Assembly (NCBI GenBank): GCA_016710985.1
Contig: JADJTX010000015.1
Span: forward strand, 63,859-127,858
Length of the DNA: 64,000 nt
Direction of reading: 5' to 3'
Source: Ignavibacteria bacterium
Lineage (GTDB): Bacteria > Bacteroidota > Ignavibacteria > Tepidaquicellales > Tepidaquicellaceae
The first letter of the stretch is position 1; every line of letters starts with the position of its first letter. The notes under the pieces are model-generated. The model saw only the letters and a program-made list of their open reading frames with translations, had not been told where the DNA came from and did not search any database. The translations under genes were made by a program, and so were the position numbers. Shown one piece after another: positions 25,814 to 63,068 of the stretch.

Positions 25814-27543
25814 TTAAGCATTTACAAATTCCTGATTGACTTTTGTCAGTTTTCCTTTCTGCAATGTAAAGTAACTGTCAGCCTTTATTTTACGTGTGAT
25901 CTTGTGTCCTATAATAATCACTATTTTATTCTTTGTATGGCTGTGAAGATTTTCAAAAAATTATTTTCAGCAAGAAGATCTATTGAACTTGTAGGTTCAT
26001 CCAGTATGATAATTTGAGAATCACTGTAAAAAGCTCTCGCTAATGCGATCTTTTGCCATTGACCTGTGCTGAGTTCCTCTCCGTCTTTAAAATATTTCCC
26101 GACAATTGTATCGTATCTTTCAGGAAATTCGTCAATAAATACTTTTGCACCTGATAGTTCAGTAACTGATTCAAGATCGTTTTCCATATCAACATCACCG
26201 AATCTGATGTTTTCTTTTACAGTCAAATCATATTTGCAATAATCCTGATAAATTATTCCTATATTTTTATGTAACGAATGAATGTCTATGTCTCTGATAT
26301 TTATATCGTCAAAAGTAATTGTTCCCTTTGTACATTCATACATTCGACACAATAAATTTATTAAGGTAGTTTTCCCCGCTCCGTTCTTACCAGTGATTAA
26401 TACAGTTTCACCGGGCTTTATTGAAAATGAAATATTTTCTAATACATTTTTTGTACTTCCTTCATAATGAAATGAAACATTCTCAAACCTAATTCCCTTC
26501 GTTAGCTTGGGTAAAGGATATGCATTCTGAATTTGTTTTATTTGCGGTTTCAGATTTATAAACTCAAAGAGGTTACTTAAAAATAATTTATTATTATAAA
26601 TGCCTGTAACATTTCCCAAAATTCCATTCAAATAGGTATTTGCGCTTCTAACAGCTCCAAAGAACATTACAAAACCTCCGATTGTAGTTTCACCGGCGTA
26701 AAATTTATTCGTTAACATAACTATCGCTATAGTAAGCGCACCGACTTCAAAAAAACTTGAAACAATATTGCCACTGGCCTGCTTTTTCAATAATTTAATA
26801 ACCTGTTCCATCAATGCTCCGCGTGTTGTGTCATGGTATTTCTGAATATAATCTCCGAGATTAAAAATTCTGATTTCCTTTGCCTAAATACGATGGGTCA
26901 TTAGCATGCTGCAATAATTAACCTTTCTGTACAAACTGGTATTTGCTTTTCTCCATTCATAATAAATTTTAGTTCTGGTCAATTTAATAAATAACGCGGG
27001 GATACCTGCAATCACCATTATTAGTAAAACATACCCTGAGACCGAGGCAAGAATAACAGCAACACCTACAAATGAGATCAGATTCTTTATTAATTCCGAG
27101 ATATTGTTTAAAATTTGAATCGGGCGAAAAGTTGCTTCCTGCTGAGCTCTGTGAAATGTATCGTGATACTCGGGATTATCATAGTATGTAAGATCCAATT
27201 CCAGAGATTTATTATGAAGAAGACTATTTATAAAATCAATAATTCTCTGTCCTAATATTTCACCAACTATTGTATTTATTACAGCTGATATCTGCGTAAA
27301 TAAGAATACCCCGCAAACAAGTGATATGGTAAACCAGACATCATCAGAACCTGAAGTTCCCGAATTTGTTATAGTATCAATTAATTCCTTAAGAAGATAA
27401 AGTGAAATTAGCGGTAAAATACTCTGAACTATTATTAATACCAGCCTGAAATAACATAATCGTTTGTCACTGTCGTATACAAATCTGATTGTTTTTGATA
27501 TATTGGATAAATCGGATTTGAGGTTCTTAAAATCAAATGTCAT
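25814..27543 (-). CDS. Fused ABC exporter (TMD + NBD, MsbA/MdlB type) downstream of the NRPS; interrupted by an in-frame TAG and one frameshift
   Basis: Six-helix TMD, then Walker A GKNGAGKTT, signature LSTGQWQKIALARA and Walker B IIILDEPTSSID. TAG at 26884-26886 is in frame (...MTHRI*AKEIRIFNLGDY...). After a 1-nt loss in an A-run at about 25,925 the frame continues KIVIIIGHKITRKIKADSYFTLQKGKLTKVNQEFVNA*, with stop at 25814-25816. Confidence 0.8.
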
Positions 27544-27565: not shown

Positions 27566-29230
27566 TTAAATTAATGCCGTAACTTTCTGGAAGACGTGGA
27601 ATGAATTTGATATACTGACAATAAATTTATCGTCAATATTGCTTTTTAAAAACTTTAAAAAAGTTTTATTTAAATATCTTTTTTCTTCGTTTATTTTATT
27701 TACGGAATTATATGGAGCAGAATATGGTCTGTTTTCAATTTCATTATTAGTCTTATCGAGTATTTGATTCAGCTTTTCTGCAAACAGTTTAATGTGTGGT
27801 TCACTCATAATGGTGGTATGTTCAGTATCCGGGATTACATGTGATTCAAGCCCCTCCTCTGCAAGCTTTCTCCAGCCTTCTTTGTTCTCAGCTTTGTAAT
27901 TTGCACATTCAATCAGAGTTATTTTACCCGGATATTTTGAAGCAACATATCTGTCCTGCGCCTTGAAATGTATCTGTCTTATTTCATCGAATATTTTTTT
28001 CTTGGAATCACTTAGCATATATTCTGCTTTCTCCTTAATTCCCTTTTTTGTTTTAAAATAAACATATGCAGAATAATTTTTTACAACTGTCCACAGAGCT
28101 CCTGCTCTTAAATGATGTAAACTTCTTACCATAAAATGCCTGGCATCTCTCTTCGGCGGAATATATGGCTTCGGAGTTGATATAAACGGCGGCCACGTGT
28201 CAAATATAGCTAATAAAGCGACTTCGTGTCCGGCTTTTCTTAATTGCTGAGCCATTTCAAAAGCAACTCTGCCGCCAAAACATCTCCCTCCAAGTAAATA
28301 CGGTCCTTCAGCCTGTAATGATTGAATTTCTTTTACATAAAACGCAGCCATCTCTTTTAAATCAGTATGCGGCTGCTCTTTGCCATCCTGACCAAGTGGC
28401 TCTAAAACATACACCGGCTGATCAGATGGAATATATTTTATTAATTTCTGAAGTGTTAATGCCGTTTGTGCAGCAGGAGGAACATAGAAAAAAGGCAGTT
28501 TTGAACCTCCGGATTTAACCGGAACAAGTGATCTCCACGAAGGTTTCCAATCTTCATCCTTTAAAATTTTTGAGAGTCCTTTAATCGTCGGAGAATTGAA
28601 CAGAGTTGAAATTGCAAGCTTTCGTCCTGTTAGTTTTTCAATGTATCCGAATATTTGAAGAGCTAGTATTGAATGTCCCCCCAATTCAAAAAAATTATCG
28701 TTGATTCCAACTCTTTCTACACCCAGAAGTTTTTCCCAGTTTTTTGCAAGCATCCATTCTATCTCATTACCCGGAGCTTCATATCCACTTCTTTGTTCAC
28801 CTATTTCAGGCTGTGGTAATGCTTTCTTGTCAATTTTTCCGTTTGGGGTCAGCGGCAAATTCTCAAGCTCTACCCATATCGAAGGAACCATGTATTCGGG
28901 AAGTTTAACACGAAGATATTCCATCACTTCTGTTTTGTCAAAAATACCTTTAGGTACTACATACCCTATTAAAATTTTACTGCCATCTTTAACAAACGCT
29001 GTTACAACAGCATTACTTACGAGTTCACATTCCTGAAGTACACTCTCTATTTCCCCGGGCTCAATACGGTAACCTCTGATTTTTAACTGTTCATCTTTCC
29101 TTCCCTGATATTCAATGTTCCCGTTAGATAACCATCTTCCTAAGTCTCCGGTTTTATATAACCTCACAACAACATCATTTTCAACGGGATTTTTTATAAA
29201 TTTTTCTTCCGATAGATCCGGACTATTCAA
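27566..29230 (-). CDS. NRPS gene 2, last fragment: A10 C-terminal subdomain, T10 (PCP) and a thioesterase with GxCxG
   Basis: LYKTGDLGRWL..., KIRGYRIEPGEIE, PNGKIDKKALP, PCP FFELGGHSILA. TE: GPYLLGGRCFGGRVAFEMAQQL...IFDTWPP...PDTEHTTIM. It continues from the 29242-34278 ORF after a 1-nt loss at about 29,256 and a TGA at 29237-29239 in place of the Arg of GLARGYL. Confidence 0.85.
   Translation of the reverse strand: MNSPDLSEEKFIKNPVENDVVVRLYKTGDLGRWLSNGNIEYQGRKDEQLKIRGYRIEPGEIESVLQECELVSNAVVTAFVKDGSKILIGYVVPKGIFDKTEVMEYLRVKLPEYMVPSIWVELENLPLTPNGKIDKKALPQPEIGEQRSGYEAPGNEIEWMLAKNWEKLLGVERVGINDNFFELGGHSILALQIFGYIEKLTGRKLAISTLFNSPTIKGLSKILKDEDWKPSWRSLVPVKSGGSKLPFFYVPPAAQTALTLQKLIKYIPSDQPVYVLEPLGQDGKEQPHTDLKEMAAFYVKEIQSLQAEGPYLLGGRCFGGRVAFEMAQQLRKAGHEVALLAIFDTWPPFISTPKPYIPPKRDARHFMVRSLHHLRAGALWTVVKNYSAYVYFKTKKGIKEKAEYMLSDSKKKIFDEIRQIHFKAQDRYVASKYPGKITLIECANYKAENKEGWRKLAEEGLESHVIPDTEHTTIMSEPHIKLFAEKLNQILDKTNNEIENRPYSAPYNSVNKINEEKRYLNKTFLKFLKSNIDDKFIVSISNSFHVFQKVTALI
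28280..28282 (-). other. Cys codon (TGT) at the nucleophile position of the terminal thioesterase (G-R-C-F-G)
   Basis: The reverse complement of 28271-28294 reads ctt gga ggg aga tgt ttt ggc ggc, giving L G G R C F G G. This is residue 317 of the ORF. Confidence 0.85.
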
Positions 29231-29241
29231 ATAGCCTCAGG

Positions 29242-32200
29242 CTAACCCTTCTCCTCAATGCATATTTCTCCTGTTACACCAACCGGAACATTATTTTGAC
29301 ACTCATCTAAAATATACACAACTGTATTTGAAATTGGTTTTCCTATTGGAGGAGTTATGTAAGAATCTTTTTCGGATAGTTCATAGAAGCTCGTAACTAC
29401 AGTGTTCTCCGTAGGTCCGTAATTATTTACTAATTTGAATGTCTTATGCTCCATTAATAGACCTTGTAACTTGTCTCCGCCTGTAAGTAAATATCGCAAG
29501 GAATCTAATTTATCGAGTGATTCATTAATAAATTCCGGCACAATTGCCGTCGGCATAAAACTATGTGTTATTCTGTTTTGATTAATTAAGTTTAATAAAG
29601 CATCAGTTGATAAACGTGTGTCATCATCAATAATAGTTATTGAAGCACCGGCAGATAAATATGGCCAGATCTCCCAACCGAAAGCGTCAAATCCAACTCC
29701 GGCCATTGCAGTACAACGGCTTTGTGAGGTTACTTTGTAAGTTTGATTATGCCACATTATCAGATTTAATAAACCTGAATTTTCAATCATCACTCCCTTT
29801 GGTTTACCGGTTGATCCTGATGTGTAAATTACATATGCGAGCTGATCAGGCTTAATGATTTTATCAGGATTATCATAAGACATTTTGTCTATCTTTGACC
29901 AGTCTCCGCCTATTTCAATGATCTCAATTTTTTCAGATACAGGTATTTTAGATCTGAATGATTTACTGCTCAAAACAATTGCAGCATCTGTGTCCTCAAG
30001 CATGAATCTGATTCGTTCATCCGGATATTCAGGATCAACCGGTACATATGCACCGCCTGACTTTAATACTCCCAGTATCCCGATAATCATTCCTGCACTT
30101 CTGTCCATGCAAATAGGAATAAGAGTTTCATCTTTTACTCCTTTACTTATTAAATAGTGCGCCAGTTTATTTGAACGTTCATTTAGTTCTTTGTAAGTTA
30201 ATTTTTCACTTCCAAAAAATATTGCTGGGCTGTCCGGTGTTTTTTCTGCATGTTCCTCAAATAAATCAATTGGTGTTTTGTCTGTTTGGAAATCAACTTT
30301 AGTATTATTAAACTCAACCCTTAACATGTGCAGTTCTTCTTTTGTCAGCATGGACATCTCCCCGACATTTTGTTCCGGGTTCAATACGATAGACTTTAGT
30401 AACTCTTTAAAATGTTCGATCATTCTGTTTATCGTATCAGCATTAAAGAGATCAGTGCAATACTGAATATTGCCGACAAAACCCTGAGCTGTTTCATTTA
30501 TGTTTACAGTAAGATCAAACTTAGCTGATGTATGTTCGTGACCTTCCTTGGAGAGCATTACATTTCCTAATTGCAGCTTTGGAATATCAGGTGTATTCTG
30601 TAATACAAACATTACCTGAAATATAGGAGTCCTGCTTTGATCCCTGTCCTTCACTACCGCATCCACCACCTTCTCAAACGGCACATCCTGATATTCATAT
30701 GCCTTCAGTGTTGTTGCTTTAATTTTTTGAAGTAAATCTTTAAAGCCTTCGTTTCCATTTACTTCACTTCTCAATGCAAGCGTATTTATAAAGAAGCCTA
30801 TCAGCCCTTCGAGATTCTGCTGCTGCCTGCCCGCTACCGGCGTGCCGATACAGATGTCGTGCTGAGAGCTGTATCTGTAAAGCAATACGTTCAGCGCTGC
30901 AAGCAAAGTCATAAACAGTGTCGTCCCGTTTTCCTGTGATATTTTATTCAGCTTATCCGATATGTCCTTTTCAATTTTAAATCCTGCAACAGCTCCCCGT
31001 ATGCTCTGCATCGCAGGTCTGTTAAAATCTGTCGGCAGCTGCAGCGGCTCTGATCCCGCAAGGTTCTCCTTCCAGTACTCAAGCTTCTTCTCAAGTACTT
31101 CGCCCTGAAGATACTTCCTCTGCCACATCGCATAATCCGCATACTGCAATGGCAGCGGCTGAAGCTTCGGCTCTCTTCCCTCTTCAAATGCTCCGTATAA
31201 TTCAACAAGCTCCTTCACTATCACCGACGTTGACCAGCCGTCCGAAGCTATATGATGCAGCGTCACCGCAAGTACGTGATCTTCTTCACTCATCTTTATA
31301 AGTTGAGCTCTTAACATATAATCTTCCGATAAATTAAACGGCGTGCTGATCAGCTGCTTTATGTAACTCTGTAACTTGTCTTTATCTTTATCCTCACTGT
31401 ATTCTTTTCCGTCTATGGTTTCTAAACTCCATCCCTCACTGTCTTTGATAAACTGATAGCCCACGCCTTCTTCTTCACGTATCACCGTGCGGAGAACTTC
31501 GTGCCGTTCGATTATGCTTCTTAATGATCTTTCCAATGCTTCCGTGTTCAGCTTACCTGTCAATCTCAGCACCGACGGTACGTGATACTGAACGCTGCCT
31601 TCAAGATGATCTATGAACCAAAGTCTCTCCTGACTGAATGACAATGGTATCCTTTGAGGACGTTCCTTTATTACTTCAATTGCAGGCAGCACTTCCGCAT
31701 CTGACTGAACTTCAAGCTGTCCTGAAAGCAATGCTACTGTCGGATAATCAAAGATATCTCCGATCGGCATCTCTACATTAAATGCTTTTCGTATCGCTGA
31801 TATTAATCTTACTGCCAAAAGCGAGTGACCGCCAAGCTCAAAGAAATCATCGTGTATGCCTACCTGATCAACTTCTAAAACTTCTTTCCATATCTCTGCT
31901 AACTTAGTTTCTGCTTCATTACGCGGAGCCGTAAATCCTTCACTCATTATATCAAGTGTCTCAGGATCCGGTAATGCATTCCTGTCTGTCTTACCATTTG
32001 CGGTTAATGGAAACTCTGTAAGCTCTATCAACACAGAAGGTACCATGTATTCAGGAAGCTTCTCTTTTAAGAAACTTGTGATCGCTTCTTTATCAAATCC
32101 TCTTCCGGTTTCTCTTCCGGTTTCTTTGTCAATGGTTACATAGCCGACTAATCTTCTGTTGCCCTGCTTATCTTCTCTCGCAAGCACTACTGCCTGAGAT

Positions 32201-34278
32201 ACTGACTCACTCTGCTGAAGTACACTCTCTATCTCGCCAAGCTCTATCCTGTATCCTCTTATCTTTATCTGATCATCTACACGTCCAATGAAAAGTATAT
32301 TACCATCCGGTAAATATTTCACAAGATCACCTGTCCCGTACATTAACGAGTCATGTTCATCATCTTTATGAACTTTATGAACTTTACTAACTTTATGAAC
32401 TTTATGAACTTTATGAACTTTTTCAAACGGATTCTCTACAAACTTTGCTTTCGTTAATTCTTCATTGTTAAAATATCCTCTGGCGACTCCGTCTCCCGAT
32501 ATATAAAGTTCTCCCGGTACGCCTGCCGGACACAGCTGCCTGTCTTTTGTTAAAATGTAAACCTGCGTATTCGAGAACGGCTTTCCGATAGGAATCGTAT
32601 TAACAAAGTTTGTATAGTCTGTTTGTGTGTCCACTTCGTGAAGCAGTTTTCCGATAGTTGTCTCCGTCGGTCCGTAGTGATTTACTATTCTGCAATCTGT
32701 ACCCGTCTCTCTGATCTTTTCAATCAGCTCCGATTGAAGTGCTTCACCGCCGAATACCAGCAGCTTCTTTGGCAACAGTAACTTATCTTCATTCATCAAA
32801 GCTTTCCAGTGCGAAGGAACTATCTTTAAACAATCTATGCTGTGTTCTTTAAAATATCCGTGTATGTATTCTATGTTGCTTACTGATTCTTTTGTAAATA
32901 AATGCAATGCTCCGCCTGTTAACAGCGAACTGTAGATCACAGTATTCCCAAGATCGGTTGCAATGGTTGAAACCAACGCAAATGAACGGCTCTCATTTAT
33001 ACTTATCTTTTCATTTAATCCAAATACATAATCAACAAGACTTCTGTGTTCTATCATAACGCCTTTTGGCTTACCCGTCGAGCCCGATGTATAGATCACG
33101 TATGCTAAATTATCAGGTGATACTTTTGTCTGAAGGTTTTCTTTCGGTTCGCCTGTTACTTTTTCTATTTCTATTACTTCGATGTTTTCTGTAAAAGGTA
33201 ATTTTGATCTGCTCTGTTTACTGCTTACAATTATTTTAGCTTTGGTATCTTCAAGCATGTATCTGATCCTGTCCTGCGGGAAGTCCGTATCGACCGGCAC
33301 ATAAGCTGCACCCGATTTCATTATGCCAAGCATTCCGATCATCATCTCAATACCGCGTTGCGAATACAGCGGAACGGCTGTTTCTTCCTTAACTCCTTTG
33401 CTTCTCAGATAATGAGCCAGCTGATTTGAACGTTCATTTAATTCAAGATAAGAAAGTTCTTTGCCTTCGAAAACAACTGCAGCTGCGTGAGGTGTCTTTT
33501 TAACCTGATCCTCGAACAGATCAACTATGCTCTTGTCTTTCGGATAAATTACCGCTGAAGTATTTATCTCTGCTGACAACTGATGCTCTTCCTCTTTGCT
33601 CAGCATCGGCAGAAGACCTATCTTCTGATCCGGATCTTTTATGACTGATCTGAGCAGCTCTTTGAAATGCTCTGTCATGCGGCTTATCATCCGCTCCGAA
33701 TAAAGATCCGACCTGTACTGAACCGATACCATCAGGCCGTTTGGAGTTTCATTTACAAAAAATGTTATCTCAAACTTCGATACATTATTCTCAAATGCTT
33801 CCGTACTCATCCGCACCTCGCCAAGCTGCAGCTGCGGAACCTCAGGTGTATTATGCAATACCAGCATCACCTGAAACAGCGGGCTTCTGCCCGGATCTCT
33901 GTCCTTCACTACCGCATCTACCACTTTCTCAAACGGAACTTCCTGATGTGAGTATGCATCAAGTGTCGTCTGCTTTACCTGATGAAGCAACTCAATGAAT
34001 GTTTCATCATTGCTTACTTCACTTCGCAGAGCAAGTGTATTTACAAAGAATCCGATAAGGTTTTCGATCTCCTGCTGCGGACGGTTGGTAATGGAAGTTC
34101 CTACTGATATGTCACTCTGTCCGCTGTACCTGTATAGCAGCACATTAAAAGCTGAAAGCAAGGTCATGAACAATGTACTGCCCTGCTGACGGCTTAATTC
34201 ATTAAGTCCGTTTGCTGTTTCCTTTTCTACCTTAAAGCTCTGAGTTGTGCCGCTGTTTGTTTTCACGCTTGAGCGCAT
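29242..34278 (-). CDS. NRPS gene 2 fragment: C9 (C-terminal part)-A9(Asp code)-T9-C10-A10(Leu code, up to core A6)
   Basis: A cores LAYVIYTSGSTGKPKG twice, NHYGPTETT and NNYGPTENT. PCP FFELGGHSLLA. C motif LHHIASDGWS. It is in frame with ORF 34348-34629 across the TAA at 34348-34350. Confidence 0.9.
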   Translation of the reverse strand: MRSSVKTNSGTTQSFKVEKETANGLNELSRQQGSTLFMTLLSAFNVLLYRYSGQSDISVGTSITNRPQQEIENLIGFFVNTLALRSEVSNDETFIELLHQVKQTTLDAYSHQEVPFEKVVDAVVKDRDPGRSPLFQVMLVLHNTPEVPQLQLGEVRMSTEAFENNVSKFEITFFVNETPNGLMVSVQYRSDLYSERMISRMTEHFKELLRSVIKDPDQKIGLLPMLSKEEEHQLSAEINTSAVIYPKDKSIVDLFEDQVKKTPHAAAVVFEGKELSYLELNERSNQLAHYLRSKGVKEETAVPLYSQRGIEMMIGMLGIMKSGAAYVPVDTDFPQDRIRYMLEDTKAKIIVSSKQSRSKLPFTENIEVIEIEKVTGEPKENLQTKVSPDNLAYVIYTSGSTGKPKGVMIEHRSLVDYVFGLNEKISINESRSFALVSTIATDLGNTVIYSSLLTGGALHLFTKESVSNIEYIHGYFKEHSIDCLKIVPSHWKALMNEDKLLLPKKLLVFGGEALQSELIEKIRETGTDCRIVNHYGPTETTIGKLLHEVDTQTDYTNFVNTIPIGKPFSNTQVYILTKDRQLCPAGVPGELYISGDGVARGYFNNEELTKAKFVENPFEKVHKVHKVHKVSKVHKVHKDDEHDSLMYGTGDLVKYLPDGNILFIGRVDDQIKIRGYRIELGEIESVLQQSESVSQAVVLAREDKQGNRRLVGYVTIDKETGRETGRGFDKEAITSFLKEKLPEYMVPSVLIELTEFPLTANGKTDRNALPDPETLDIMSEGFTAPRNEAETKLAEIWKEVLEVDQVGIHDDFFELGGHSLLAVRLISAIRKAFNVEMPIGDIFDYPTVALLSGQLEVQSDAEVLPAIEVIKERPQRIPLSFSQERLWFIDHLEGSVQYHVPSVLRLTGKLNTEALERSLRSIIERHEVLRTVIREEEGVGYQFIKDSEGWSLETIDGKEYSEDKDKDKLQSYIKQLISTPFNLSEDYMLRAQLIKMSEEDHVLAVTLHHIASDGWSTSVIVKELVELYGAFEEGREPKLQPLPLQYADYAMWQRKYLQGEVLEKKLEYWKENLAGSEPLQLPTDFNRPAMQSIRGAVAGFKIEKDISDKLNKISQENGTTLFMTLLAALNVLLYRYSSQHDICIGTPVAGRQQQNLEGLIGFFINTLALRSEVNGNEGFKDLLQKIKATTLKAYEYQDVPFEKVVDAVVKDRDQSRTPIFQVMFVLQNTPDIPKLQLGNVMLSKEGHEHTSAKFDLTVNINETAQGFVGNIQYCTDLFNADTINRMIEHFKELLKSIVLNPEQNVGEMSMLTKEELHMLRVEFNNTKVDFQTDKTPIDLFEEHAEKTPDSPAIFFGSEKLTYKELNERSNKLAHYLISKGVKDETLIPICMDRSAGMIIGILGVLKSGGAYVPVDPEYPDERIRFMLEDTDAAIVLSSKSFRSKIPVSEKIEIIEIGGDWSKIDKMSYDNPDKIIKPDQLAYVIYTSGSTGKPKGVMIENSGLLNLIMWHNQTYKVTSQSRCTAMAGVGFDAFGWEIWPYLSAGASITIIDDDTRLSTDALLNLINQNRITHSFMPTAIVPEFINESLDKLDSLRYLLTGGDKLQGLLMEHKTFKLVNNYGPTENTVVTSFYELSEKDSYITPPIGKPISNTVVYILDECQNNVPVGVTGEICIEEKG
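32368..32421 (-). repeat. In-frame 9-bp tandem repeat x6 in A9, encoding (KVH)3-KVS-(KVH)2
   Basis: The + strand reads atgaacttt x2, actaacttt, atgaacttt x3. Protein: FEKVHKVHKVHKVSKVHKVHKDDEHD, lying between A-core GDGVARGYF and YGTGDL. Confidence 0.9.
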
Positions 34279-34347: not shown

Positions 34348-34629
34348 TTATACCTCTCCCTGCAGATAATTCCTCTGCCATATCGCAAAATCCGCATACT
34401 GAAGTTTCAATGACTCTAAAGTTAAAGGATTACCTTCTTCATAAGATCTGTAAAGCTCCGTCACATCCTTTACTATGATCGGCATTGACCACGCATCCGA
34501 AGCAATATGGTGCATTGTTACTACAAGTATGCTCTCATCTTCCTGAAGATTGATCAGCTCTGCACGAAGCATATAATCTTTTGACAAGTCGAAAGGTATG
34601 TTGATAAGCTGCTGTATGTAATCCTTCAA
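34348..34629 (-). CDS. NRPS gene 2 fragment: central part of C9 (HHxxxD motif region)
   Basis: VVTMHHIASDAWSMPIIVKDVTELY...LQYADFAIWQRNYLQGEV. Near-identical paralogue text occurs in C6 (ORF 44548-48645). It is bounded by a 1-nt frameshift at about 34,628 and the TAA at 34348-34350. Confidence 0.85.
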   Translation of the reverse strand: MKDYIQQLINIPFDLSKDYMLRAELINLQEDESILVVTMHHIASDAWSMPIIVKDVTELYRSYEEGNPLTLESLKLQYADFAIWQRNYLQGEV

Positions 34630-37600
34630 AGCTGTGCATCATCCTTAAAAACCGTACCGTCTGTGATTCCTAACTTCCACTCATCTGTACTCTTGATATG
34701 CTGATAAGGGCTGCCGTCTTCCTGAAGGATCACCGTACGGAGCACTTCGTGACGGCTGATGATCTCACGCAATGAATATGTTAACGCTTCTGTATTTATT
34801 TTACCTTTGAACCGCAAAACGGATCTGACATGGTATTGAATGCTTCCTTCTAACTGATCAATGAACCAAAGCCGCTCCTGACTGAAAGACAGTGGTATTT
34901 TTTCCGGGCGATTTGATAAGACTTCGATTGAAGGCAGTACTTCTGAATCAGACTGGTTCTGAAGTTGTGATGCAAGCAACGCTACTGTCGGATATTTAAA
35001 AATAATAGTGATGGGTATTTCCAGTCTTAACTCTCTTCTTATTGCTGATATCAAACTTATTGCATCCAGTGAGTGCCCACCCAGATCAATGAATTCATCA
35101 TGTATACCTATCCTGTCAATATCTAAAACCTCCTGCCAGATTTCTGCCAGCTTTGCTTCAATGTCATTGCGGGGAGATTCATACTGTTTGCTTAATTCAC
35201 CTGAAGTCTCAGGATCAGGTAATCCCTTTCTGTCTATCTTTCCGTTTGATGTCAAAGGAAAACTCTCTAACTCAACCCACTGCGCTGGGATCATATAATC
35301 AGGTAATCTGCCGGATAAGTATAATATCAATGCTTCTTTGTTAAAAATATTTTCAGGCACTACATAAGCTGTCAGTCTTCGGTTGCCAGAATTATCCTCT
35401 CTTGCAAGTATCACTGATTGCTTAACCTCATCGCACTGCTGAAGCACACTTTCAATCTCTCCGAGTTCGATTCTGTATCCGCTTATCTTTACCTGATCAT
35501 CCGTCCTGCCCTTGTATTCTATATTGCCGTCCGGGAGCCATCGTCCCAGATCTCCGGTCCTGTATAGTTTAGCGCCTGCTTCGCCGAACGGATCTGTTAT
35601 GAACTTCTCTTTTGTCAGTTCGGGTAAATTCAAATATCCAATTGATAAACCGTCGCCACCTATGCATATCTCACCGGTTACTCCTGCGGGAAGCAGCTCC
35701 TGATTTTCATCAAGTATGTATATTCTTACATTATCTATTGGCTTACCGATCGGAATTTCATTTCTTAAATTTACTGTATCATTCTGAATATTAAAACAAA
35801 ATATACTGCATCCTACTGTTGCTTCTGTCGGTCCGTATTCATTAATTATCTCCACATCAATTCTTTTTTCGATCAGATAACTTAACTGACTCAACAATAA
35901 TGCTTCACCTCCAATCACCAGTTTCTTAGTCAAAAGGTTTCCGTCAGGAAGCTTCATCTTCGTCTGCAATAGCTCCAAATGCGAAGGGGTGATCTTAATG
36001 AAATCATATGGAGCAAACTTCTGAAGATTAATGTCATCAAAAACATCAACAGATTGACTCGAACCTATGACGACTGACTTACCTTTTATCAACGGCATGA
36101 AAATACCTGTTACTGATGCGTCGAAAGTATATGATAAGTGTATATAGCTTCCTGCATTGCTGCCATCATTGTTTATGTAATTGGTTTTGCCGTTAGTAAG
36201 ATAACTAAATAAGTTCTTATGCTGTATCATCACGCCTTTGGGATTACCTGTTGAACCGGAAGTATAAATAATATAAGCGAGATCATCTCCTTCTATTACT
36301 TTTCCCGGGTTGTCAGTATTCATTTTCTCAAATTGAGACATACCCTCGTCGATGATTATGACATTCTCTTCAGATGTGTGCGTAAAATTTGATTTGTTTT
36401 CATGATTTGTAACAATTAATTCACTACCGGTATTATCGACCATGTATTTTATTCTTTCATCAGGATAATCCGGATCAATCGGCACATAAGATCCTCCGGA
36501 TTTTAGTATGCCAATTATTGCTATGATCATCTCAAATGAATTCTCCAGGCAAACAGGGACAGGAATATTTTCTTTAATGCCTTTACTGATAAGATAATGT
36601 GCTAACCGGTTTGCACGTGTATTTAAAACTTCATAAGTGATTTTATCGTCTTTACAAATCAACGCAATAGCATCCGGTGTTTTAAATACCTGTCCCTCAA
36701 ACAACTCAATTGCACTCTTGTATTTCTGAGTATCTGTTCTCCTACGGTTAAACTCTTCGAGTATCTCATGCTCTTCGGCAGAGGTAAGCAGCTTAACATC
36801 CCTCAGCTTTTCATTTTCATTTTTAATAAACTGAAATAATACATGTTCAAAATGATTACGTATTTCATTTACATATTCGTCTTTAAGCAAACCGGAGTTA
36901 TATGAAAAACGGACACTTACTTTTTCCGCATTCACTATTGTTAGACTCAGCGGGAAATTGTTCTGCTCCGTTACAAGTATGTTCTCAACTTTCAGTTTCC
37001 AGTCATGAGAGGATATTAATTTACTTATCGGATAATTCTGGAATGTAAGAGTAGTGTCAAACAGATCACCGTGTAATCCTGACCATTTCTGAATATCGTG
37101 TATTGGAGTGAACTGATATTGTCTTGACAAGGCTTCTTTATTTTGCATGCTCCTTAACCAGTCTCCTATCTTTTCATTCTGCAGTATAGTTGCACAAGAA
37201 GGAACTGTGTTGATATACATTCCAACACGATTTTCTACACCGGGTAAATCATCAGGACGCCCGGAAACCGTAACTCCAAAAATTATTTCTTTACTTCCTG
37301 AATACCTGTGTAAAAGATATGACCAAACTCCCTGTATTAATGTATTTAGTGTAATTCGATTTGCCTGAGCATAACTTTGAATTTTTTCAGAATAAGAAGT
37401 ATCCAACTCAAGTGTGGATTGTTTATATAACCCCAGACCTTTTGTTCTCTCTGAAGTCGTTTCTATAAAAGGAAGCAGGGAACTGTCTCCGGTAGTATTC
37501 AGATAATTACCCCAGAATTTTTTTTCATCTTCTTTTTCAAGTCTTTCAATGTATCGGATATAATCTTCAAACCGGTCATCTTCCCCGGGTTTTATTTCAA

Positions 37601-40600
37601 TACCTGAAACAACAGAATCGTAAACGTTTAAAAACTCTTCAACCAATATCTGAAGCGACCACCCGTCAAACAATATATGATGATATGTGAGAAGCATTCG
37701 GTAGCGGTCATCACTTATCCGGAATAAAGCAACACGCATCAACGGAGCTGATTTGAAAACGAAACCTTTAGCCCTGTCTGATCTTGTATATTCTTTAATC
37801 TCGTTTTCAATCTCACCCGGATCTGTTTTTCTGTGATCGATAATCTCAACTGATATTTCAGCTTCTCTGTAAACACATTGAACCGGAACTTTGAATGAAT
37901 CATAATAAAATCCGCTTCGCAGAATACTGTGATTATTTAAAACAGAGTTCCAGCTTCTAATCAATTTATCAATATCCGGATTTACCAGATCACAGGCAAG
38001 TTGATTAATGTAAGATCCTGCTCTCCCATCATACAAAGAATGAAACAGCATCCCCTGCTGAAGTCCGCTCAACCTGTATAAAGCTTCGATCGACTCTCTC
38101 CTCGCTTTGCCTTTGTACGGCTCTTCAAGGAATTTATCCAGCTCTTCATATCTGACCTCTGATCCCAATCCATAATCCGAAGGCGTAAATATCTCTCCTG
38201 ATCTCTGCTGCTCAACACAGTGCGCTATCAGTTCTTCAAGTTTCGTTTTATATATTTCTGTCAGCTTTCCTATCGTTTCATTATCAAAATGCCTGCTGCT
38301 GTAATTCCATCTCAGCGTTAACTTCCCGCCCTGCACAAATCCGTTTATCATCAGCTTCTCTTTTACAATATGCTCACCGCTTATGTCCTCTCCCTTTGAC
38401 TCGCCTGCGCCTGAAAACAATTTGCCCGAGCTTACTACATTGTCAAGCTGCCCGAGATAGTTAAACACTACATCCCAGTTTCCTTTATCTCTAAGCTTCT
38501 CATCTTTATTTATATATTTTAATACTCCGTAGCCCAGCCCCTTGTCCGGTATTCTGCGCAGCTGTTCCTTCACAGCTTTGATCGAATCCGATAAAGTTTT
38601 ATTTATTTCCGGTTCAATTAGTACAGGATAAAGATTTGTAAACCAACCAACCGTCCTGCTTGTATCTATATTCTCTGAGCTTTCTGAAATGCTTTCTCTG
38701 CCGTGTCCTTCAAGTCCTATGACTATTTTATCTTTTGCTCCCCATTCACAAATTGTCTGTGCAAGAGCGCAAAGAAGCATGTCGTTTATCTCAGTATGAT
38801 ATGCACGCGGAACTTCCTGCAATAACTCCTTAGTCCTTTCAGAGTCAAGACGCATCACCTGACTTTCAAGATCTTTTGCCCTTACAGCTCCGGTAAATTC
38901 TTTGTCAACCTTCAGTGCTTCATAGCTGTCTGCTGTCTCTTCCCAGTAATTGATCTGTGATAATAATCTTCTGCTCTTTCCGTATTCAGCAAGAGCTTCA
39001 TACCACTGTCTGTATGAACTGCTCTTTAGTCCAAGTTCTGCTTTTTCATTCTTCGTAAATCCATTCAGAAGAAGTTCAAGGTCGTCAAGAATTATCCGCC
39101 ATGATACTCCGTCAACCGCAAGGTAGTGCACTATGATTAAGATCGTGTTGCTTGTTTCACTCTCAGGAGTTTCGATAAATACAAACTTTGCCATTTCTCC
39201 CTTCTCTATATTAAGACTGCTCTGATATTTCTCAGCATGCTCTTTTATCTTTTCGGCAAGAGAACTTGCTTGTGCTGATTTCAGGTCCAATACATTCAAT
39301 ACGCCTTTCTCTGTCCCGTACTCCTGAATCCAGTCTCCGTCTGCTTTATGATAAATAAATCTAAGTGCATCGTGATGAGCTGTCAGCATTTCAACTGCAA
39401 TACCGAGCATCTCCGGTGTCACTGTCTTATCTATTGATAATAAAACACTTTGGTTAAAATGTGAAGTGTCTGTATCGGAAACTGAATCTGATCCATCTAA
39501 ATACCATTGCTGTATCGGAAGCAATCCGCTTCTGCCTGTTAATGATCCCTGCTCTGCAGTTAATTCAGATGCCGTACGTTCTGCCAGTACTGCGCTCAGA
39601 CCGCTTATTGTCTGATGAATAAATATATCCTTCGGCTTCAATTCATATCCCATCCTCCTTGCACGGCTCAGCACCTGTATCGTTATGATCGAATCACCGC
39701 CAAGCTCGAAGAAGTTATCATTTATTCCCACACGCTCTACACGAAGCAGTTCTTTCCAGATCTCCGCCAGTACCAGCTCTGTCTCATTTCGCGGAGCTGC
39801 ATACTCATTGCTTACAAGTTCGCTTGCATCAGGGTCAGGCAATGCTCTCTTATCGATCTTACCGTTCTGTGTCAGCGGAAGACTCTCCATCTCTACCCAC
39901 AATGAAGGTATCATGTAATCCGGAAGTCTGATGTTAAGATAATTTATAATTGCATCTTTGTTAAATGCTCCATCGGGAACGACATATCCTACAAGCCTTT
40001 TACTTTCACCGGACGTTTGGCGCGCAAGTACTACCGACTGCCGGACCAATCCGCTTTCCTGTAAAGTATTCTCAATCTCTCCAAGCTCAATTCTGTATCC
40101 GCGTATCTTTACCTGATCATCGATCCTCCCGAGATACTCTATGTTACCGTCAGCAAGCCACCGTCCCCGGTCGCCTGTCCTGTATAGCCTTGCTCCTTCT
40201 TCCTTGCTGAACGGATCTTTTACAAATTTTTCTTCTGTCAGATCTGTGCGGTTTAAATATCCTATCGAAACACCTGCGCCGCTTATGCATATTTCTCCCG
40301 GTACTCCGGCAGGTGATATTTCTCCTCCTTCACTTAATATATATATCTGAACATTATCTATAGGCTTTCCGATGGATATTTCATTTTTCAAATTTCCATT
40401 AACTCCCGCAGCGTTAAACTCATATACACTGCAACCTACAGTCGTCTCAGTCGGTCCGTACTCATTTACAATGTTTACATCAATTCTATTTTCAGTAAAG
40501 TAACTAATGTGACTATGAAGCAATGCTTCACCTCCAATCACTAACTTCTTCGTTAACAATCCGCCGTCCCCTGTTTTCATTTTTGCCTGTATCAATCCAA

Positions 40601-43600
40601 GATGCAACGGTGTTAATTTTATAAAATCATATGGCGCATATTTCTGAAGATTTACATCTTCAAATATATCGAGAGACTGATTTGAGCTGATGACTATGGA
40701 TTTACCGTTTATCAAAGGCATGAACATTCCCGTTACCGATGCATCAAATGTAAATGGCAGATGAATAAAACTTCCTGAGTTAGAGTTATCCTTTGTAATA
40801 TATTTTGTTTTACTGTTGAGTAGATAGCTCATCAGATTATTGTGTCCGACTACTACTCCTTTCGGCTTGCCTGTTGAACCGGATGTATATATTACATAAG
40901 CCGGATTCTTAGGCTTAATATCCGTCCGGACTTTGTCAGCAGAATGTTTACTTATCTTTTCCCGGTCATTGTCTGTCACAATGATATCTGTGTTCTCTGT
41001 TTTAATTAATTTTGATCTGCTGTTTTTACTGCACACAATATAGGCTGCGCCTGTGTCTTCAAGCATGTACCTTATCCTGTCTTCAGGATATTCCGGGTCT
41101 ACCGGAACATACACTCCGCCTGCTTTCAGAATTCCGATTATTCCTGTAAACATATCAATACTGCGCTCTATGCAAATTGGAACCAACGTCTCTTCCTTTA
41201 CTCCTTTGCTTCTTAAATAATGCGCCAGCTGATTTGAACGCTCATCAAGTTCTTTGTAAGTTAATTTTTCATTTCCATATATTAATGCAATGTTTCCGGG
41301 AGTTTCTCTTACCTGTTCTTCAAAAAGATCCAGGACTGTCTTGCCTGTTGAATACTTAACTTTTGTATCATTAAATTCCGTAATTAATTTATTCAATTCA
41401 GACTGACTCAAAATGGAAAGTTTACTGACCTTTTCACTTGGATTATGTACAATAGAATTTAACAGCTCTTTAAAATGTAGGACCATCCTTTCAGCCGTTT
41501 CTTTCTCAAATAAATCTGTGCAGTATTCAACTGTCCCTCTTAATCCATCCGGTGTTTCTGTCAGACTAAATGTCAGATCAAATTTAGCTGTATGATGCGT
41601 AAATGAAAGTGCTGATAGCCCTGCTTTTCCAAGACTAAGCTGAGGGACATCCGGTACGTTCTGTAACATCAGCATTACCTGGAATAAAGGACTATGGCTC
41701 ATATCCCTTTCCTTCACCACCGCATCCACCACCTTCTCAAACGGCACATCCTGATATTCATATGCCTTCAGTGTTGTTGCTTTTATTTTTTGAAGTAAAT
41801 CTTTAAAGCCTTCGTTTCCATTGACTTCACTTCTCAATGCAAGCGTATTTATAAAGAAGCCTATCAGCCCTTCAAGTTCCTTTTGCTGTCTTCCCGCTAT
41901 CGGCGTGCCGACACAAATGTTGTGCTGAGAGCTGTACCGGTAAAGCAAAACATTCAGCGCTGCAAGCAAAGTCATGAAAAGTGTTGTTCCGTTTTCCTGT
42001 GATATTTTATTCAGCTTATCCGATATGTCCTTGTCTATTTTAAAACCTTCAACAGCTCCTTTTATGCTCTGCACTGCCGGTCTGTTAAAATCTGTCGGCA
42101 GCTGAAGCGGCTCTGATCCCGCAAGGTTCTCCTTCCAGTACTCAAGCTTCTTCTCAAGTACTTCGCCCTGAAGATACTTCCTCTGCCACATCGCATAATC
42201 CGCATACTGCAATGGCAGCGGCTGAAGCTTCGGCTCTCTTCCCTCTTCAAATGCTCCGTATAATTCAACAAGCTCCTTCACTATCACCGACGTTGACCAG
42301 CCGTCCGAAGCTATATGATGCAGCGTCACCGCAAGTACGTGATCTTCTTCACTCATCTTTATAAGTTGAGCTCTTAACATATAATCTTCCGATAAATTAA
42401 ACGGCGTGCTGATCAGCTGCTTTATGTAACTCTGTAACTTGTCTTTATCTTTATCCTCACTGTATTCTTTTCCGTCTATTAGTTCTAATTCCCATCCCTC
42501 ACTGTCTTTGATAAACTGATACCCCACGCCTTCTTCTTCACGTATCACCGTGCGGAGAACTTCGTGCCGTTCGATTATGCTTCTTAATGATCTTTCCAAT
42601 GCTTCCGTGTTCAGCTTTCCCGACAATCTCAGCACCGACGGAACGTGATACTGAACGCTGCCTTCAAGATGGTCTATGAACCAAAGACGCTCCTGACTGA
42701 ATGACAATGGTATCCTGTTTGGACGGTCAGTCATTACTTCTATCGCCGGCAGTACTTCCGCATCTGACTGAACTTCAAGCTGTCCTGCAAGCAATGCTAC
42801 TGTCGGATAATCAAAGATATCTCCGATCGGCATCTCTACATTAAATGCTTTTCGTATCGATGATATTAATCTTACTGCCAAAAGCGAGTGTCCACCAAGC
42901 TCAAAGAAATCATCGTGTATGCCTACCTGATCAACTTCTAAAACTTCTTTCCATATCTCTGCTAACTTAGTTTCTGCTTCATTACGCGGAGCCGTAAATC
43001 CTTCACTCATTATATCAAGTGTCTCAGGATCCGGTAATGCATTCCTGTCTGTCTTACCATTTGCGGTTAATGGAAACTCTGTAAGTTCTATCAATACCGA
43101 AGGAACCATGTATTCAGGAAGCTTCTCTTTTAAGAAACTTGTGATTGCTTCTTTATCAAATCCTCTTCCGTTTTCTCTTCCGGTTTCTCTTCCGTTTTCT
43201 TTGTCAATGGTTACATAGCCGACTAATCTTCTGTTGCCCTGCTTATCTTCTCTCGCAAGCACTACTGCCTGAGATACTGACTCACTCTGCTGAAGTACAC
43301 TCTCGATCTCTCCAAGCTCTATCCTGTATCCTCTTATCTTTATCTGATCATCTACACGTCCAATGAAAAGTATATTACCATCCGGTAAATATTTCACAAG
43401 ATCACCTGTCCCGTACATTAACGAGTCATGTTCATCATCTTTATAAACTTTATGAACTTTACTAACTTTATGAACTTTACTAACTTTATGAACTTTTTCA
43501 AACGGATCCTCTACAAACTTTGCTTTCGTTAATTCTTCATTGTTAAAATATCCTCTGGCGACTCCGTCTCCCGATATATAAAGTTCTCCCGGTACGCCTG

Positions 43601-47600: not shown

Positions 47601-48645
47601 ACCGCTCAATGCAAAGTGAAACAAATGTTTCTTCTTTTACTCCTTTACTTTTTAAATAGTGCGCAAGCTGATTTGACCTTTCATTCAGTTCATTATAAGT
47701 AAGCTCCTGATCTTCAAATACCAGCGCAACAGCATTAGGCGTCTTTTCTGCCTGCGCTTCAAACAGTTCTATAATTGTTTTGTCGTCAGGATACTCTGTA
47801 TCATTATTATTAAAATCAATGAGCAGTTTATCCTCTTCAGCTTTAGAGATCATTCGCAGATTTATTATCTCATGATCCGGGTTTTGTACAATTGAGCTGA
47901 GTAATATTTTAAAATGTTCCAGCATTCGCTCTACAGTATGCTCAGTGAACAGATCAGTATTGAACTCAACAGAACCGGCCAATCCTTTAGATGTCTCATT
48001 CAAACTAAATGACAGATCAAACAGCGCTGTTGTATGGTCATGACTTTCCCTGATAAACTGTATCTCGCCCAGATTAAGAACAGGTATGTCCGGTGTATTT
48101 TGCAGGACAAACATTACCTGAAAGACAGGATTCCGGCTCATGTCTCTTTTTTTTACCACAGATTCTACTATTTTTTCAAAAGGAATTTCCTGATGATCAA
48201 AAGCATCAAGCGTAGTTTGACGGACCTGCTTTAACAATTCTGAGAATGATGAATCCGGTTTCAGTTCAGTTCTTAAGGCAAGAGTGTTTATGAAAAACCC
48301 GATGAGCCCTTCCAGCTCATACTGATTTCTACCGGCTGTTCCTGTGCCTACACAAATGTCAGCCTGATTACTGTACCGGAAAAGCAATACTTTCAATGCA
48401 GCAAGAGTAGTCATGAACAGTGTACTCTCATTCTTCTGAGCCAAAATTTTTAATGCAGATGTAACATCTTTATCAATATTAAATGAAGCAACAGCGCCTC
48501 TGTTACTCTGAACGGCAGGACGCGGATGATCGGTTGGCAATTGCAATGGTGTTACATCCTTAAGCTTCTCTTTCCAGTAGCTGATCTTTTTTTCAAGAGT
48601 TTCTCCCTTGCAGATATTTCCTCTGCCATAATGCAAAATCGGCAT
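44548..48645 (-). CDS. NRPS gene 2 fragment: C5 (C-terminal part)-A5(Val code)-T5-C6-start of A6
   Basis: LAYVIYTSGSTGRPKG, NGYGPTENTTF, PCP FFESGGHSLLAMRL, C6 MHHIASDAWS. The last about 15 residues (...PSRSCSCF*) are out of frame. An extra G at 44572-44574 relative to the paralogue at about 33,491 causes this. Confidence 0.9.
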   Translation of the reverse strand: MPILHYGRGNICKGETLEKKISYWKEKLKDVTPLQLPTDHPRPAVQSNRGAVASFNIDKDVTSALKILAQKNESTLFMTTLAALKVLLFRYSNQADICVGTGTAGRNQYELEGLIGFFINTLALRTELKPDSSFSELLKQVRQTTLDAFDHQEIPFEKIVESVVKKRDMSRNPVFQVMFVLQNTPDIPVLNLGEIQFIRESHDHTTALFDLSFSLNETSKGLAGSVEFNTDLFTEHTVERMLEHFKILLSSIVQNPDHEIINLRMISKAEEDKLLIDFNNNDTEYPDDKTIIELFEAQAEKTPNAVALVFEDQELTYNELNERSNQLAHYLKSKGVKEETFVSLCIERSPDMIIAILGILKAGGVYVPIDPEYPEERIRFMIEDTGSNIILSSSFVKSKLSVLNNSETILLDEDRADIGQMKKENPQTYVKPDNLAYVIYTSGSTGRPKGVTVTQKNVVSLVKGIDYVTLTKDDKLLSTGSSSFDATTFEYWGMLLNGGQLVLCTEKILLEIDQLKEEIIKRKINRMWFTSSWFNQLLETDITLFSGLETILVGGEKLSEYHIQKLRQAYPGMEIINGYGPTENTTFSLTYRITDKKIDGSIPIGYPLNNRKAYILDEREQIVPIGVPGEICLSGAGLSRGYLNRPDQTEERFINNPFSKESGTRMYKTGDLGRWLSDGSIEYLGRKDEQVKIRGYRIELGEIENVLQESGMISQAAVVVHENEAGDKTLVCYVIPLDSFDKSSVISYLRGRLPEYMIPSLWVEAEHFVLTPNGKINKKVLPSVAEAEQISNKYIAPRNEFEEKLAVIWQDILHIEKAGIEDDFFESGGHSLLAMRLISAIRKELKLEIAVKELFSNPTIGELAQVLQEQMNNQLLPSIESVQDRPKYVPLSFSQERLWFIDQLEGSLVYNLPSIIRFKGKINTEALTYSLREIISRHEVLRTVILQEDGSPYQHIKSTDEWKLGITDGTVFKDDAQLLKDYIQQLINIPFDLSKDYMLRAELITLKEDESILVVTMHHIASDAWSMPIIVKEVTELYRSYEEGNPLSLTPLKLQYADFAIWQRNYLQGEVLDKKLDYWKKKLDGVSVLHLPSDLMRSSVKTNSGTTQSFKVEKETADGLNELSRQQGSTLFMTLLSAFNVLLYRYSGQSDISVGTSITNRPQQEIENLIGFFVNTLALRSEVSNDITFKEFIQQVKQTTLDAYSHQEVPFEKVVDAVVKDRDPGRSPLFQVMLVLHNTPEVPQLQLGGVRMSTEAFENNVSKFEITFFVNETPNGLMVSVQYRSDLYSERMISRMTEHFKELLRSVIKDPDQKIGLLPMLSKEEEHQLSAEINTSAVIYPKDKSIVDLFEDQVKKTPSRSCSCF

Positions 48646-49381
48646 ATTGTATTTTCAATGGCTCTAATTCCGAAGGCTGGCTTTTTATCAGTGAGTCATA
48701 AATTGCGGTAACTTCTTTTACTAAGATAGAAATTGACCAGCCATCAGAAGCTATGTGATGTAAGATCACAATTAATATATGCTCTTCCTCTTCAAGCTTG
48801 ATCAATACTGTTCGCAGCATAAAGTCTTTTGTTAAATCAAACGGAGCCTTTATTAATTGCTGTGTGTATTGACTAATGTAATCGCTATCATCTTTAAATT
48901 TTGAGCCGTCAATTACAGGAAGCTCCCAGTCATCTGACTGCTTGACAATCTGATAAGGTACCCCATCCTCTTCGAGAAATATCGTTCTGAGAACTTCATG
49001 ACGGTTTACAACTTTCCTGAAAGATTGCTCTAAAGCTCCTTTGTTTAACTTTCCTTTCAATCTGTATATTGCAGGTATGTGATACTGCAGGCTGCCCTCT
49101 AAACGGTCTACAAACCATAGCCTTTCCTGACTGAATGATAACGGGATCAGCTGAGTATTTTCTCTGTCAAAAATGCTGATTTTAGACTTACCGTTTTTAC
49201 TCCTTTTATTGTCCCTTAAAAATTCAATTATTAATGCTTTATTATCTTTTAATTGACGAAGAAGGTCCTTATCAATATCCTTATTCTTTGGAAGTTTTAA
49301 TTGCAGCTGCTCCCCAACCAAAAGTATATCAATGCCGTTCTGCTTCGCTAAATATAATAAATCAATAACAGTGTTAGTCAT
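48593..49381 (-). CDS. NRPS gene 2 start: TubC-N-like docking domain plus N-terminal half of C5
   Basis: ATG at 49379-49381 lies 33 nt after the gene 1 stop. MTNTVIDLLYLAKQNGIDILLVGEQLQLKLPKNKDIDKDLLRQLKDNKALIIEFL fits the TubC_N docking pattern. Then IPLSFSQERLWFVDRLEG...LHHIASDGWS. It ends at a +1 G-run frameshift near 48,605. Confidence 0.85.
   Translation of the reverse strand: MTNTVIDLLYLAKQNGIDILLVGEQLQLKLPKNKDIDKDLLRQLKDNKALIIEFLRDNKRSKNGKSKISIFDRENTQLIPLSFSQERLWFVDRLEGSLQYHIPAIYRLKGKLNKGALEQSFRKVVNRHEVLRTIFLEEDGVPYQIVKQSDDWELPVIDGSKFKDDSDYISQYTQQLIKAPFDLTKDFMLRTVLIKLEEEEHILIVILHHIASDGWSISILVKEVTAIYDSLIKSQPSELEPLKIQYADFALWQRKYLQGRNS
49217..49381 (-). other. TubC-N-like N-terminal docking domain of NRPS gene 2
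   Basis: The first about 55 aa fit the pattern LL..A...GI.L...G..L.......I...L...L...K..II.FL. They precede the C-domain start LSFSQERLWF. Confidence 0.6.
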
Positions 49382-63006: not shown

Positions 63007-63068
63007 TGTAGTTGAACGGCTGGTACCGGTTACTTTGTAAACCCGGTTATGCCATGTAATTAAATTAA

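Follow-up and report, generated by a model that had tools for sequence, protein, structure and literature searches.

Natural cysteine-for-serine thioesterase (TE) domains of nonribosomal peptide synthetases (NRPSs) have been treated in the literature, on about five examples, as uncommon flags of "difficult" release chemistry. ObiF releases a beta-lactone and SulM a beta-lactam, BulbE carries out an indole-N macrocyclisation, the polymyxin TE a macrolactamisation, and AB3403 has a solved structure and an uncharacterised product (PMC11298585, PMC11536411, PMC11792885). In ObiF and SulM, which are grouped with the type II TEs, the catalytic Asp follows beta7 (position II); SulM has a Gln-Cys-Asn motif around its nucleophile (PMC11298585). 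In BulbE-TE, the pair Cys961/Asp988 gives a spacing of +27 with the Asp at the end of beta6, and cyclisation with weak nucleophiles requires the Cys (PMC11536411, PMC11792885). For the polymyxin TE, a Cys-to-Ser change lowers activity 60-fold, as cited in PMC11792885. In general, characterised Cys-TEs changed to Ser lose cyclisation and keep hydrolysis (PMC11536411, PMC11792885), and acyl-enzymes with a thioester react more readily with amines, but not with water, than those with an oxoester (PMC11536411). Here we analyse a TE with a cysteine nucleophile at the end of an NRPS assembly line from an Ignavibacteria bacterium, found in a stretch of 64,000 nucleotides of contig JADJTX010000015.1 (the window, in what follows). 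An earlier, sequence-only reading of the window gave ObiF and SulM as the described Cys-TEs; BulbE-TE, the polymyxin TE and AB3403 have to be added to that list (PMC11792885, PMC11536411, PMC11298585), and the TE of the window is another member of this known, little-studied natural variant.

A complete cysteine thioesterase fused to the last carrier protein

The TE is encoded on the minus strand, in the same open reading frame (ORF) as the peptidyl carrier protein (PCP) domain of the last module and directly C-terminal to it (Table 1). The PCP has its phosphopantetheine site at Ser187 (28670-28672, in LGGHSI). The TE is matched by PF00975 at residues 248-396 with E=8.6e-24 and 85.4 bits, for a cut-off of 26.4. 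The sequence-only reading had set the domain at 27790-28515; the location is correct, and the full domain, by alignment with relatives, is slightly wider. The translated ORF is identical to MBK8551796.1, annotated as an AMP-binding protein in an Ignavibacteria bacterium metagenome-assembled genome (MAG) and encoded on a contig of 134,369 bp. This annotated protein of 554 aa is a piece of a far longer synthetase.

The canonical Ser of the GxSxG motif is absent from the window TE, where the nucleophile is Cys317. The TGT codon and the peptides quoted for the nucleophile in the sequence-only reading are all present, and its candidate partners in IFDTWPP and PDTEHTTIM correspond to Asp344 and His471, both at triad positions. 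When the domain is compared by phmmer with the sequences of the PDB, Cys317 falls in the same column as the nucleophile Ser of Skyxy-TE 7CRN (GWSLGS) and of NocB-TE (GWSFGG), and as the Cys of Acinetobacter baumannii AB3403 4ZXH (GGWCFGG). The alignment that had been proposed as a check thus puts the Cys on the nucleophile position, in register with the Ser or Cys of solved TEs.

The fold agrees. An AlphaFold model of the TE, for which the input was 27 aligned TE domains (mean predicted local distance difference test score 86.2), has alpha/beta-hydrolase topology. In the numbering of the domain, Cys92 is Cys317, Asp119 is Asp344 and His246 is His471. In the model, Cys92 stands between the strand 86-91 and the helix 93-107, which is the nucleophile elbow, Asp119 comes right after the strand 112-118, and His246 is in the loop after the strand 236-241. 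The top matches of the model in a Foldseek search of the PDB are type I TE domains: Skyxy-TE, EntF, Pks13, AB3403, NocB and Vlm2. Skyxy-TE is the best solved match, with E=2.5e-42 for the family profile and E=4e-17 for Foldseek. The TE domain aligns with its relatives from end to end without lesions. Behind it, there is a tail of 54 residues (27566-27730, minus strand); the tails of the orthologues have about 22 residues, and are hydrophilic and unrelated in sequence. The long tail may be a read-through into the start of the neighbouring exporter gene caused by an assembly error.

Conservation and ancestry of the cysteine

The cysteine is conserved in all the orthologues of this TE that we looked at. 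The closest database proteins (51-59% identity; NCBI, ENA and JGI) have the motif GGRC(F/L)GG in 9/9 cases. We also scanned one genome per GTDB species, which gave about 31 loci with 53-71% identity, all of them from Ignavibacteria/Bacteroidota MAGs and many in short-read assemblies (with NODE_ and k127_ contig names). All of these loci have the Cys and none has Ser, which answers the orthologue check suggested by the sequence-only reading; the His is there wherever its position is covered, and the Asp in all loci except one. C92, D119 and H246 do not vary within the orthogroup alignment. The Asp column is D in at least 90% of the sequences of a broader alignment of relatives (A1), and the Asp is present in 102 of 122 Cys-TEs and in 108 of 112 Ser-TEs.

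For the frequency of the Cys, the genome scan is unusable, and we used instead an unbiased phmmer search with the TE domain as query and 1.84 billion cluster representatives as target, which gave 32,497 matches. In the best 150 of the 32,497 matches, 118 domain hits have Cys in the nucleophile column and 57 have Ser. Cys-TEs had been called rare; in the TE's own sequence neighbourhood, Cys is the majority state. From 234 full-length TE domains, with the nucleophile column masked, we inferred a neighbour-joining tree, in which the window TE is inside an all-Cys clade of 73 domains. Fitch parsimony over the whole tree requires 16 Ser/Cys changes, none of them a reversion to Ser within the 73-member clade. 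Because the Cys is conserved across the orthologues, the phmmer neighbours and the all-Cys clade, it is, judging by these sequences, an old and inherited character and not a lesion. The all-Cys branch appears to be a deep one, present in many NRPS clusters of Ignavibacteria/Bacteroidota, with more distant members in Chloroflexota, Gemmatimonadota and cyanobacteria. Our literature searches found no systematic survey of Cys-TEs and no NRPS products from Ignavibacteria.

This conservation refutes the caveat, raised by the sequence-only reading, that the Cys might itself be a substitution lesion of this gene. In that case, the TGT codon would be an artefact or a decay mutation of a Ser codon. A single base change separates TGT from the Ser codons AGT and TCT, frameshifts and in-frame stops are found elsewhere in this NRPS, and the assembly is error-prone, with a frameshifted coaX gene. 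Against that, the Cys is found in every orthologue examined, across independent projects and assemblers, and it defines a 73-sequence clade that has a second signature, a Pro-Pro loop. We regard an artefact or a decayed Ser codon as extremely improbable.

The second signature concerns the loop that follows the first core strand, presumed to be the oxyanion loop. The window TE has VPPAAQT where the usual motif is (C/L)(V/I)HxxGG, and Pro251 replaces the His of this motif. The pair P26-P27 is invariant in the orthogroup alignment. Amongst the 234 domains, column 26 of the loop is His in 103 of the 112 Ser-TEs, and it is Pro in 62 of the 122 Cys-TEs and in 4 of the 112 Ser-TEs. This association of Pro with Cys is confounded by phylogeny; still, the alignment shows that the Cys is not the only residue by which the clade departs from ordinary TEs. 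The Pro in place of the loop His may be a change of the oxyanion loop coupled to the Cys. A more far-reaching explanation is that this large, old clade, having both the Cys and a remodelled Pro-Pro oxyanion loop, performs a novel type of TE release, for instance with a weak or external nitrogen nucleophile, in NRPS lines that would often end in Pro, Leu or Val without obvious side-chain nucleophiles. We consider this explanation rather unlikely.

Some other variations are seen amongst the relatives. The nucleophile motifs in alignment A1 include GYCLGG, GYCFGG, GHCFGG and GRCYGS. Many relatives (P0123-P0125, P0135, P0142, P0144, P0159) have two tandem TE-like domains, one with the Cys and the other with Gly, Ala or Asp at the nucleophile position, and several Cys-TEs are without the catalytic His, having R, Y, F or V there. 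The tandem or His-less TE-like domains may be degenerate, or they may work differently.

Release of the peptide and state of the assembly line

The release chemistry had been called unclear, and indeed it is not readable from the sequence. The explanation that we find probable is a genuine type I TE at the end of the NRPS, with the triad Cys317-Asp344-His471, with a Cys inherited along a deep all-Cys branch, and with release through a thioester. The finished peptide, with a C-terminal Leu, would move from the phosphopantetheine of the last PCP onto Cys317, forming a peptidyl-S-enzyme thioester and not the usual oxoester. His471 and Asp344 would then activate the incoming nucleophile, and the product would be released. 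Because none of the ten predicted C-terminal residues in the window (0/10) has a hydroxyl or amino side chain, the nucleophile should be found further upstream, or else be water. A nucleophile upstream would produce a large macrolactam or macrolactone; candidates are the N-terminal amine, a residue beyond the window, and an acyl starter with an amino or hydroxy group. We favour macrolactamisation via an amine as the probable outcome, because the added reactivity of thioesters is towards amines and not water (PMC11536411), and because characterised Cys-TEs changed to Ser lose cyclisation and not hydrolysis, and the all-Cys clade keeps its Cys strictly.

Several points weigh against this explanation. 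The start of the assembly line, where a releasing nucleophile may lie, is beyond position 64000. The NRPS has about eight frame breaks and two in-frame stops, which bear on a function in this genome that is predicted from sequence. The genome scan was biased towards Cys, which was part of one of its two search patterns. The neighbour-joining tree is a quick one without support values, and its sample is the query's own neighbourhood. Finally, no characterised member was identified in the all-Cys clade.

The main rival of an amine cyclisation is hydrolysis, in which the TE would release a linear peptide acid and the Cys would be a neutral alternative to Ser in this lineage. The absence of a side-chain nucleophile in the last ten predicted residues is compatible with it, as are the similar hydrolysis of thioesters and oxoesters (PMC11536411) and the approximately 16 Ser/Cys interchanges in the 234-domain tree. 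On the other hand, the Cys is strictly kept in the 73-member clade with no change to Ser, which suggests selection for a thioester intermediate, and the characterised Cys-TEs changed to Ser lose cyclisation, not hydrolysis. Hydrolysis is possible, and we take it to be the less probable outcome.

About eight +/-1 indels, at short homopolymer runs, disrupt the reading frame of the NRPS. The lesion sites, all on the minus strand, are at 29237-29258, 34348-34350, 34600-34650, 44560-44590, 48590-48620, 49735-49760, 52720-52750, 61790-61830 and 63060-63095. Two of them include in-frame substitution stops, a TAA for Leu at 34348-34350 and the TGA for Arg of the last module. The sequence-only reading had mentioned other lesions in this gene, and those closest to the TE, in the last module, are given in Table 1. 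A third stop, an in-frame TAG at 26884-26886 (minus strand) where relatives have Tyr, splits the ATP-binding cassette (ABC) exporter downstream of the TE. A reassignment of stop codons was rejected, as three different stops replace three amino acids (TAA Leu, TGA Arg, TAG Tyr).

The same kind of damage is found in a housekeeping gene of the window. The gene coaX (type III pantothenate kinase; 2221 to approximately 2960, plus strand) is spread over three reading frames, with one of the shifts at a G5 run near 2667-2671. The coaX ORF alone matches positions 2-152 of the 205 of Pan_kinase with 95 bits; the three frames stitched together match 2-203 with 135 bits. Because coaX is broken in the same way in the same window, the indels of the NRPS look like genome-wide assembly noise and not a cluster-specific decay. 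Judging by its accession in the MBK8 range and by the "tig" contig names of sister MAGs, the assembly may come from a long-read activated-sludge project.

A different possibility is that the cluster is a dead pseudogene here, with a TE that was functional ancestrally and is idle in this genome. The roughly eight frameshifts, the three substitution stops (two in the NRPS and one in the exporter), and an epimerisation (E) domain with HY instead of HH are what could be expected of it. However, the essential coaX needs three frames for a full Pan_kinase match, which makes the indels genome-wide, the frameshifts sit at short homopolymer runs, the NRPS genes of two related contigs of one other assembly (L001 and L002; ENA ERZ25039600) are likewise split into several ORFs, and the TE domain is free of lesions from end to end. 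The three nonsense substitutions leave a small chance of a real decay of the cluster, and a dead cluster is in our judgement improbable. For annotation, the lesson is that the broken NRPS frames are here most probably assembly noise, and not evidence of a dead cluster.

Table 1. Positions of the thioesterase, its catalytic residues, the modules of the assembly line and neighbouring features in the window. A, adenylation domain; module rows give the specificity code and the predicted residue.
Feature	Positions	Strand	Details
ORF with the TE	27566-29230	-	554 aa; A (C-terminal part)-PCP-TE; Pfam PF13193, PF00550, PF00975
Type I TE domain	27731-28555	-	residues 226-500 of the ORF; full-length alignment with 26 relatives
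PCP domain, last module	28568-28741	-	PF00550, E=3.1e-11, residues 164-221
Cys317, nucleophile	28280-28282	-	codon TGT (plus strand ACA); GGRCFGG within GPYLLGGRCFGGRVAFEMAQQL
Asp344	28199-28201	-	codon GAC; IFDTW(PP); Cys +27, directly after beta6 ("position I")
His471	27818-27820	-	codon CAT; PDTEHTTIM; near the end of the domain, loop after strand 236-241
Pro251 in VPPAAQT	28478-28480 (loop site 28478-28483)	-	loop after the first core strand
Last-module stretch	28830-30261	-	interrupted: frameshift near 29255-29258; TGA for Arg 29237-29239
NRPS assembly line	27566-64000, continues upstream of 64000	-	at least 10 modules; Pfam domains, motif map
Module 1			DAWFLGNVVK; Leu predicted; E domain
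Module 2			DATKVGEVGK; Asn predicted
Module 3			DATKVGEVGK; Asn predicted; E domain
Module 4			DAWTIAAVCK; Phe-like predicted; then gene boundary
TubC_N-type docking domain	49226-49381	-	weak Pfam match below gathering score; N-terminus of the ORF starting at 49381
Module 5			DAFWLGGTFK; Val predicted
Module 6			DLTKVGHIGK; Asp predicted
Module 7			DATKVGEVGK; Asn predicted; E domain, HY variant
Module 8			DATKVGEVGK; Asn predicted
Module 9			DLTKVGHIGK; Asp predicted
Module 10			DAWFLGNVVK; Leu predicted; PCP-TE
MsbA-like ABC exporter	25921-27543	-	directly downstream of the TE; two ORFs, 26884-27543 and 25921-26814

The specificity codes in Table 1 were read by hand from the sequence; in an automatic pairwise extraction, position 278 of the Asn and Asp modules came out wrongly as H, F or I and not as K. 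The residues were assigned by comparison of the codes with the Stachelhaus table, in which DAWFLGNVVK stands for Leu (Stachelhaus et al. 1999). The hand-read code of the last module bears out the earlier prediction that it loads Leu. The TubC_N docking domain marks a probable real gene boundary after the Phe-like module. The E domain after the third Asn module has VHYLAVDGVSW (39099-39131, minus strand) and not HHLAVDGVSW, with the Tyr codon TAC at 39123-39125. The Tyr takes the place of the second His of HHxxxDG, and this HY domain is either inactive or the result of a base error from CAC to TAC. The A domains of the two near-duplicate Asp modules have, upstream of the YGTGD motif, a 9-bp tandem repeat of approximately 6.4 copies (32364-32421 and 43439-43496, minus strand), which reads KVHKVHKVHKVSKVHKVHK and encodes (Lys-Val-His)n. 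A low-complexity insertion of this kind is unusual for an A domain. For the ABC exporter, NCBIfam gives only generic MsbA-like matches and no hint of a cyclic-peptide exporter. Further downstream of the exporter are rpsF, ssb and rplI.

The Asp-Leu ending of the window is a minority arrangement. The A-domain codes of the orthologous clusters were extracted by tblastn, and most of these clusters end in Gln(DAWQFGLID)-E-Pro(DVQF[IM]A[HQ]VV)-TE(Cys), with these two codes some 1.2 kb and 5.8 kb upstream of the matched TE (L004, L007, L011, L012, L014, L016-L019, L022, L026, L031, L047 and L070). Since the orthologous TEs are mostly placed behind other peptides, the Cys is not tied to one particular C-terminal residue. 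The TE of the orthologues is often in a separate protein with condensation (C), A, PCP and TE domains (C-A-PCP-TE), followed by an Sfp-type phosphopantetheinyl transferase, as in L007, where the C-A-PCP-TE gene is intact and has 1355 aa.

Comparison with described thioesterases

Around the window TE, the Cys is an inherited majority state, common to dozens of NRPS clusters of uncultured Ignavibacteria and to relatives from several further phyla. For this reason, a terminal TE with a Cys should not be taken as a sign of a beta-lactone or beta-lactam product. The types of Cys-TEs are told apart by the position of the Asp and by the motif around the nucleophile. The all-Cys clade is also a candidate pool for TE cyclisation biocatalysts. 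As a reference with a Ser nucleophile (GWSLGS), Skyxy-TE (skyllamycin, 7CRN/7DXO) has the same fold and the same triad positions as the window TE.

ObiF-TE (obafluorin) and SulM-TE (sulfazecin) likewise have a Cys nucleophile in the terminal TE of an NRPS, and their dependence on it is the basis for the strained-ring link proposed by the sequence-only reading, by which the Cys of the window TE would serve to close a four-membered ring (beta-lactone or beta-lactam) on release. The window TE is not of that type. Its Asp344 comes after beta6, at position I, and those of ObiF and SulM are at position II (PMC11298585); its motif is Arg-Cys-Phe, and that of SulM is Gln-Cys-Asn. A family-profile search of the PDB gave 87 matches at E up to 10, in which ObiF1 (6n8e) has a marginal E=0.022 with 17.5 bits, and SulM is absent among the best 60 of the 87. 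Neither ObiF nor SulM is among the phmmer matches in the PDB at E<=1. The products of ObiF and SulM are small, with beta-lactone or beta-lactam rings (PMC11298585), and this type of release wants a last residue with a beta-OH or a beta-NH2, such as diaminopropionate; the last A domain in the window codes for Leu, which has neither, and the orthologues mostly end in Pro. We consider a strained-ring release by the window TE very improbable.

Because of the Asp at +27 after beta6, the Arg-Cys-Phe motif and the marginal profile match to ObiF1, the layout of the window TE is, by its motifs, that of AB3403 and BulbE, and not that of ObiF and SulM. AB3403 (ABBFA_003403, PDB 4ZXH/4ZXI) has the same Cys nucleophile in GGWCFGG, an Asp after beta6 (VMIDT) and a His (PGDHSSIM), and of the PDB entries, it and Skyxy-TE fit the family profile best (E=7.2e-42 for AB3403). 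It is a single module with the C-A-PCP-TE architecture, as found in many orthologues of the window TE (L007). It differs in its sequence, with approximately 29% identity over the aligned part, and in keeping the His of the oxyanion loop (LFHPIGG), where the window TE has VPPAAQ. In the quick tree, AB3403 falls outside of the all-Cys clade of the window TE, a weak placement, as is that of Skyxy-TE, since phmmer aligned only the N-terminal halves of the two. BulbE-TE (Microbulbifer, bulbiferamide) has the same Cys/Asp/His and the same +27 spacing of the Asp. It differs by acylating the indole nitrogen of a Trp, for which the window has no predicted module, and by a "second lid" insertion. The polymyxin TE (PMB TE) has a natural catalytic Cys and performs an ordinary macrolactamisation. 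Polymyxin closes its ring on the side-chain amine of a diaminobutyrate; none of the modules in the window is predicted to load diaminobutyrate, Orn or Lys. The polymyxin TE is the working model that we favour for the window TE, which would close its ring on an amine further upstream.

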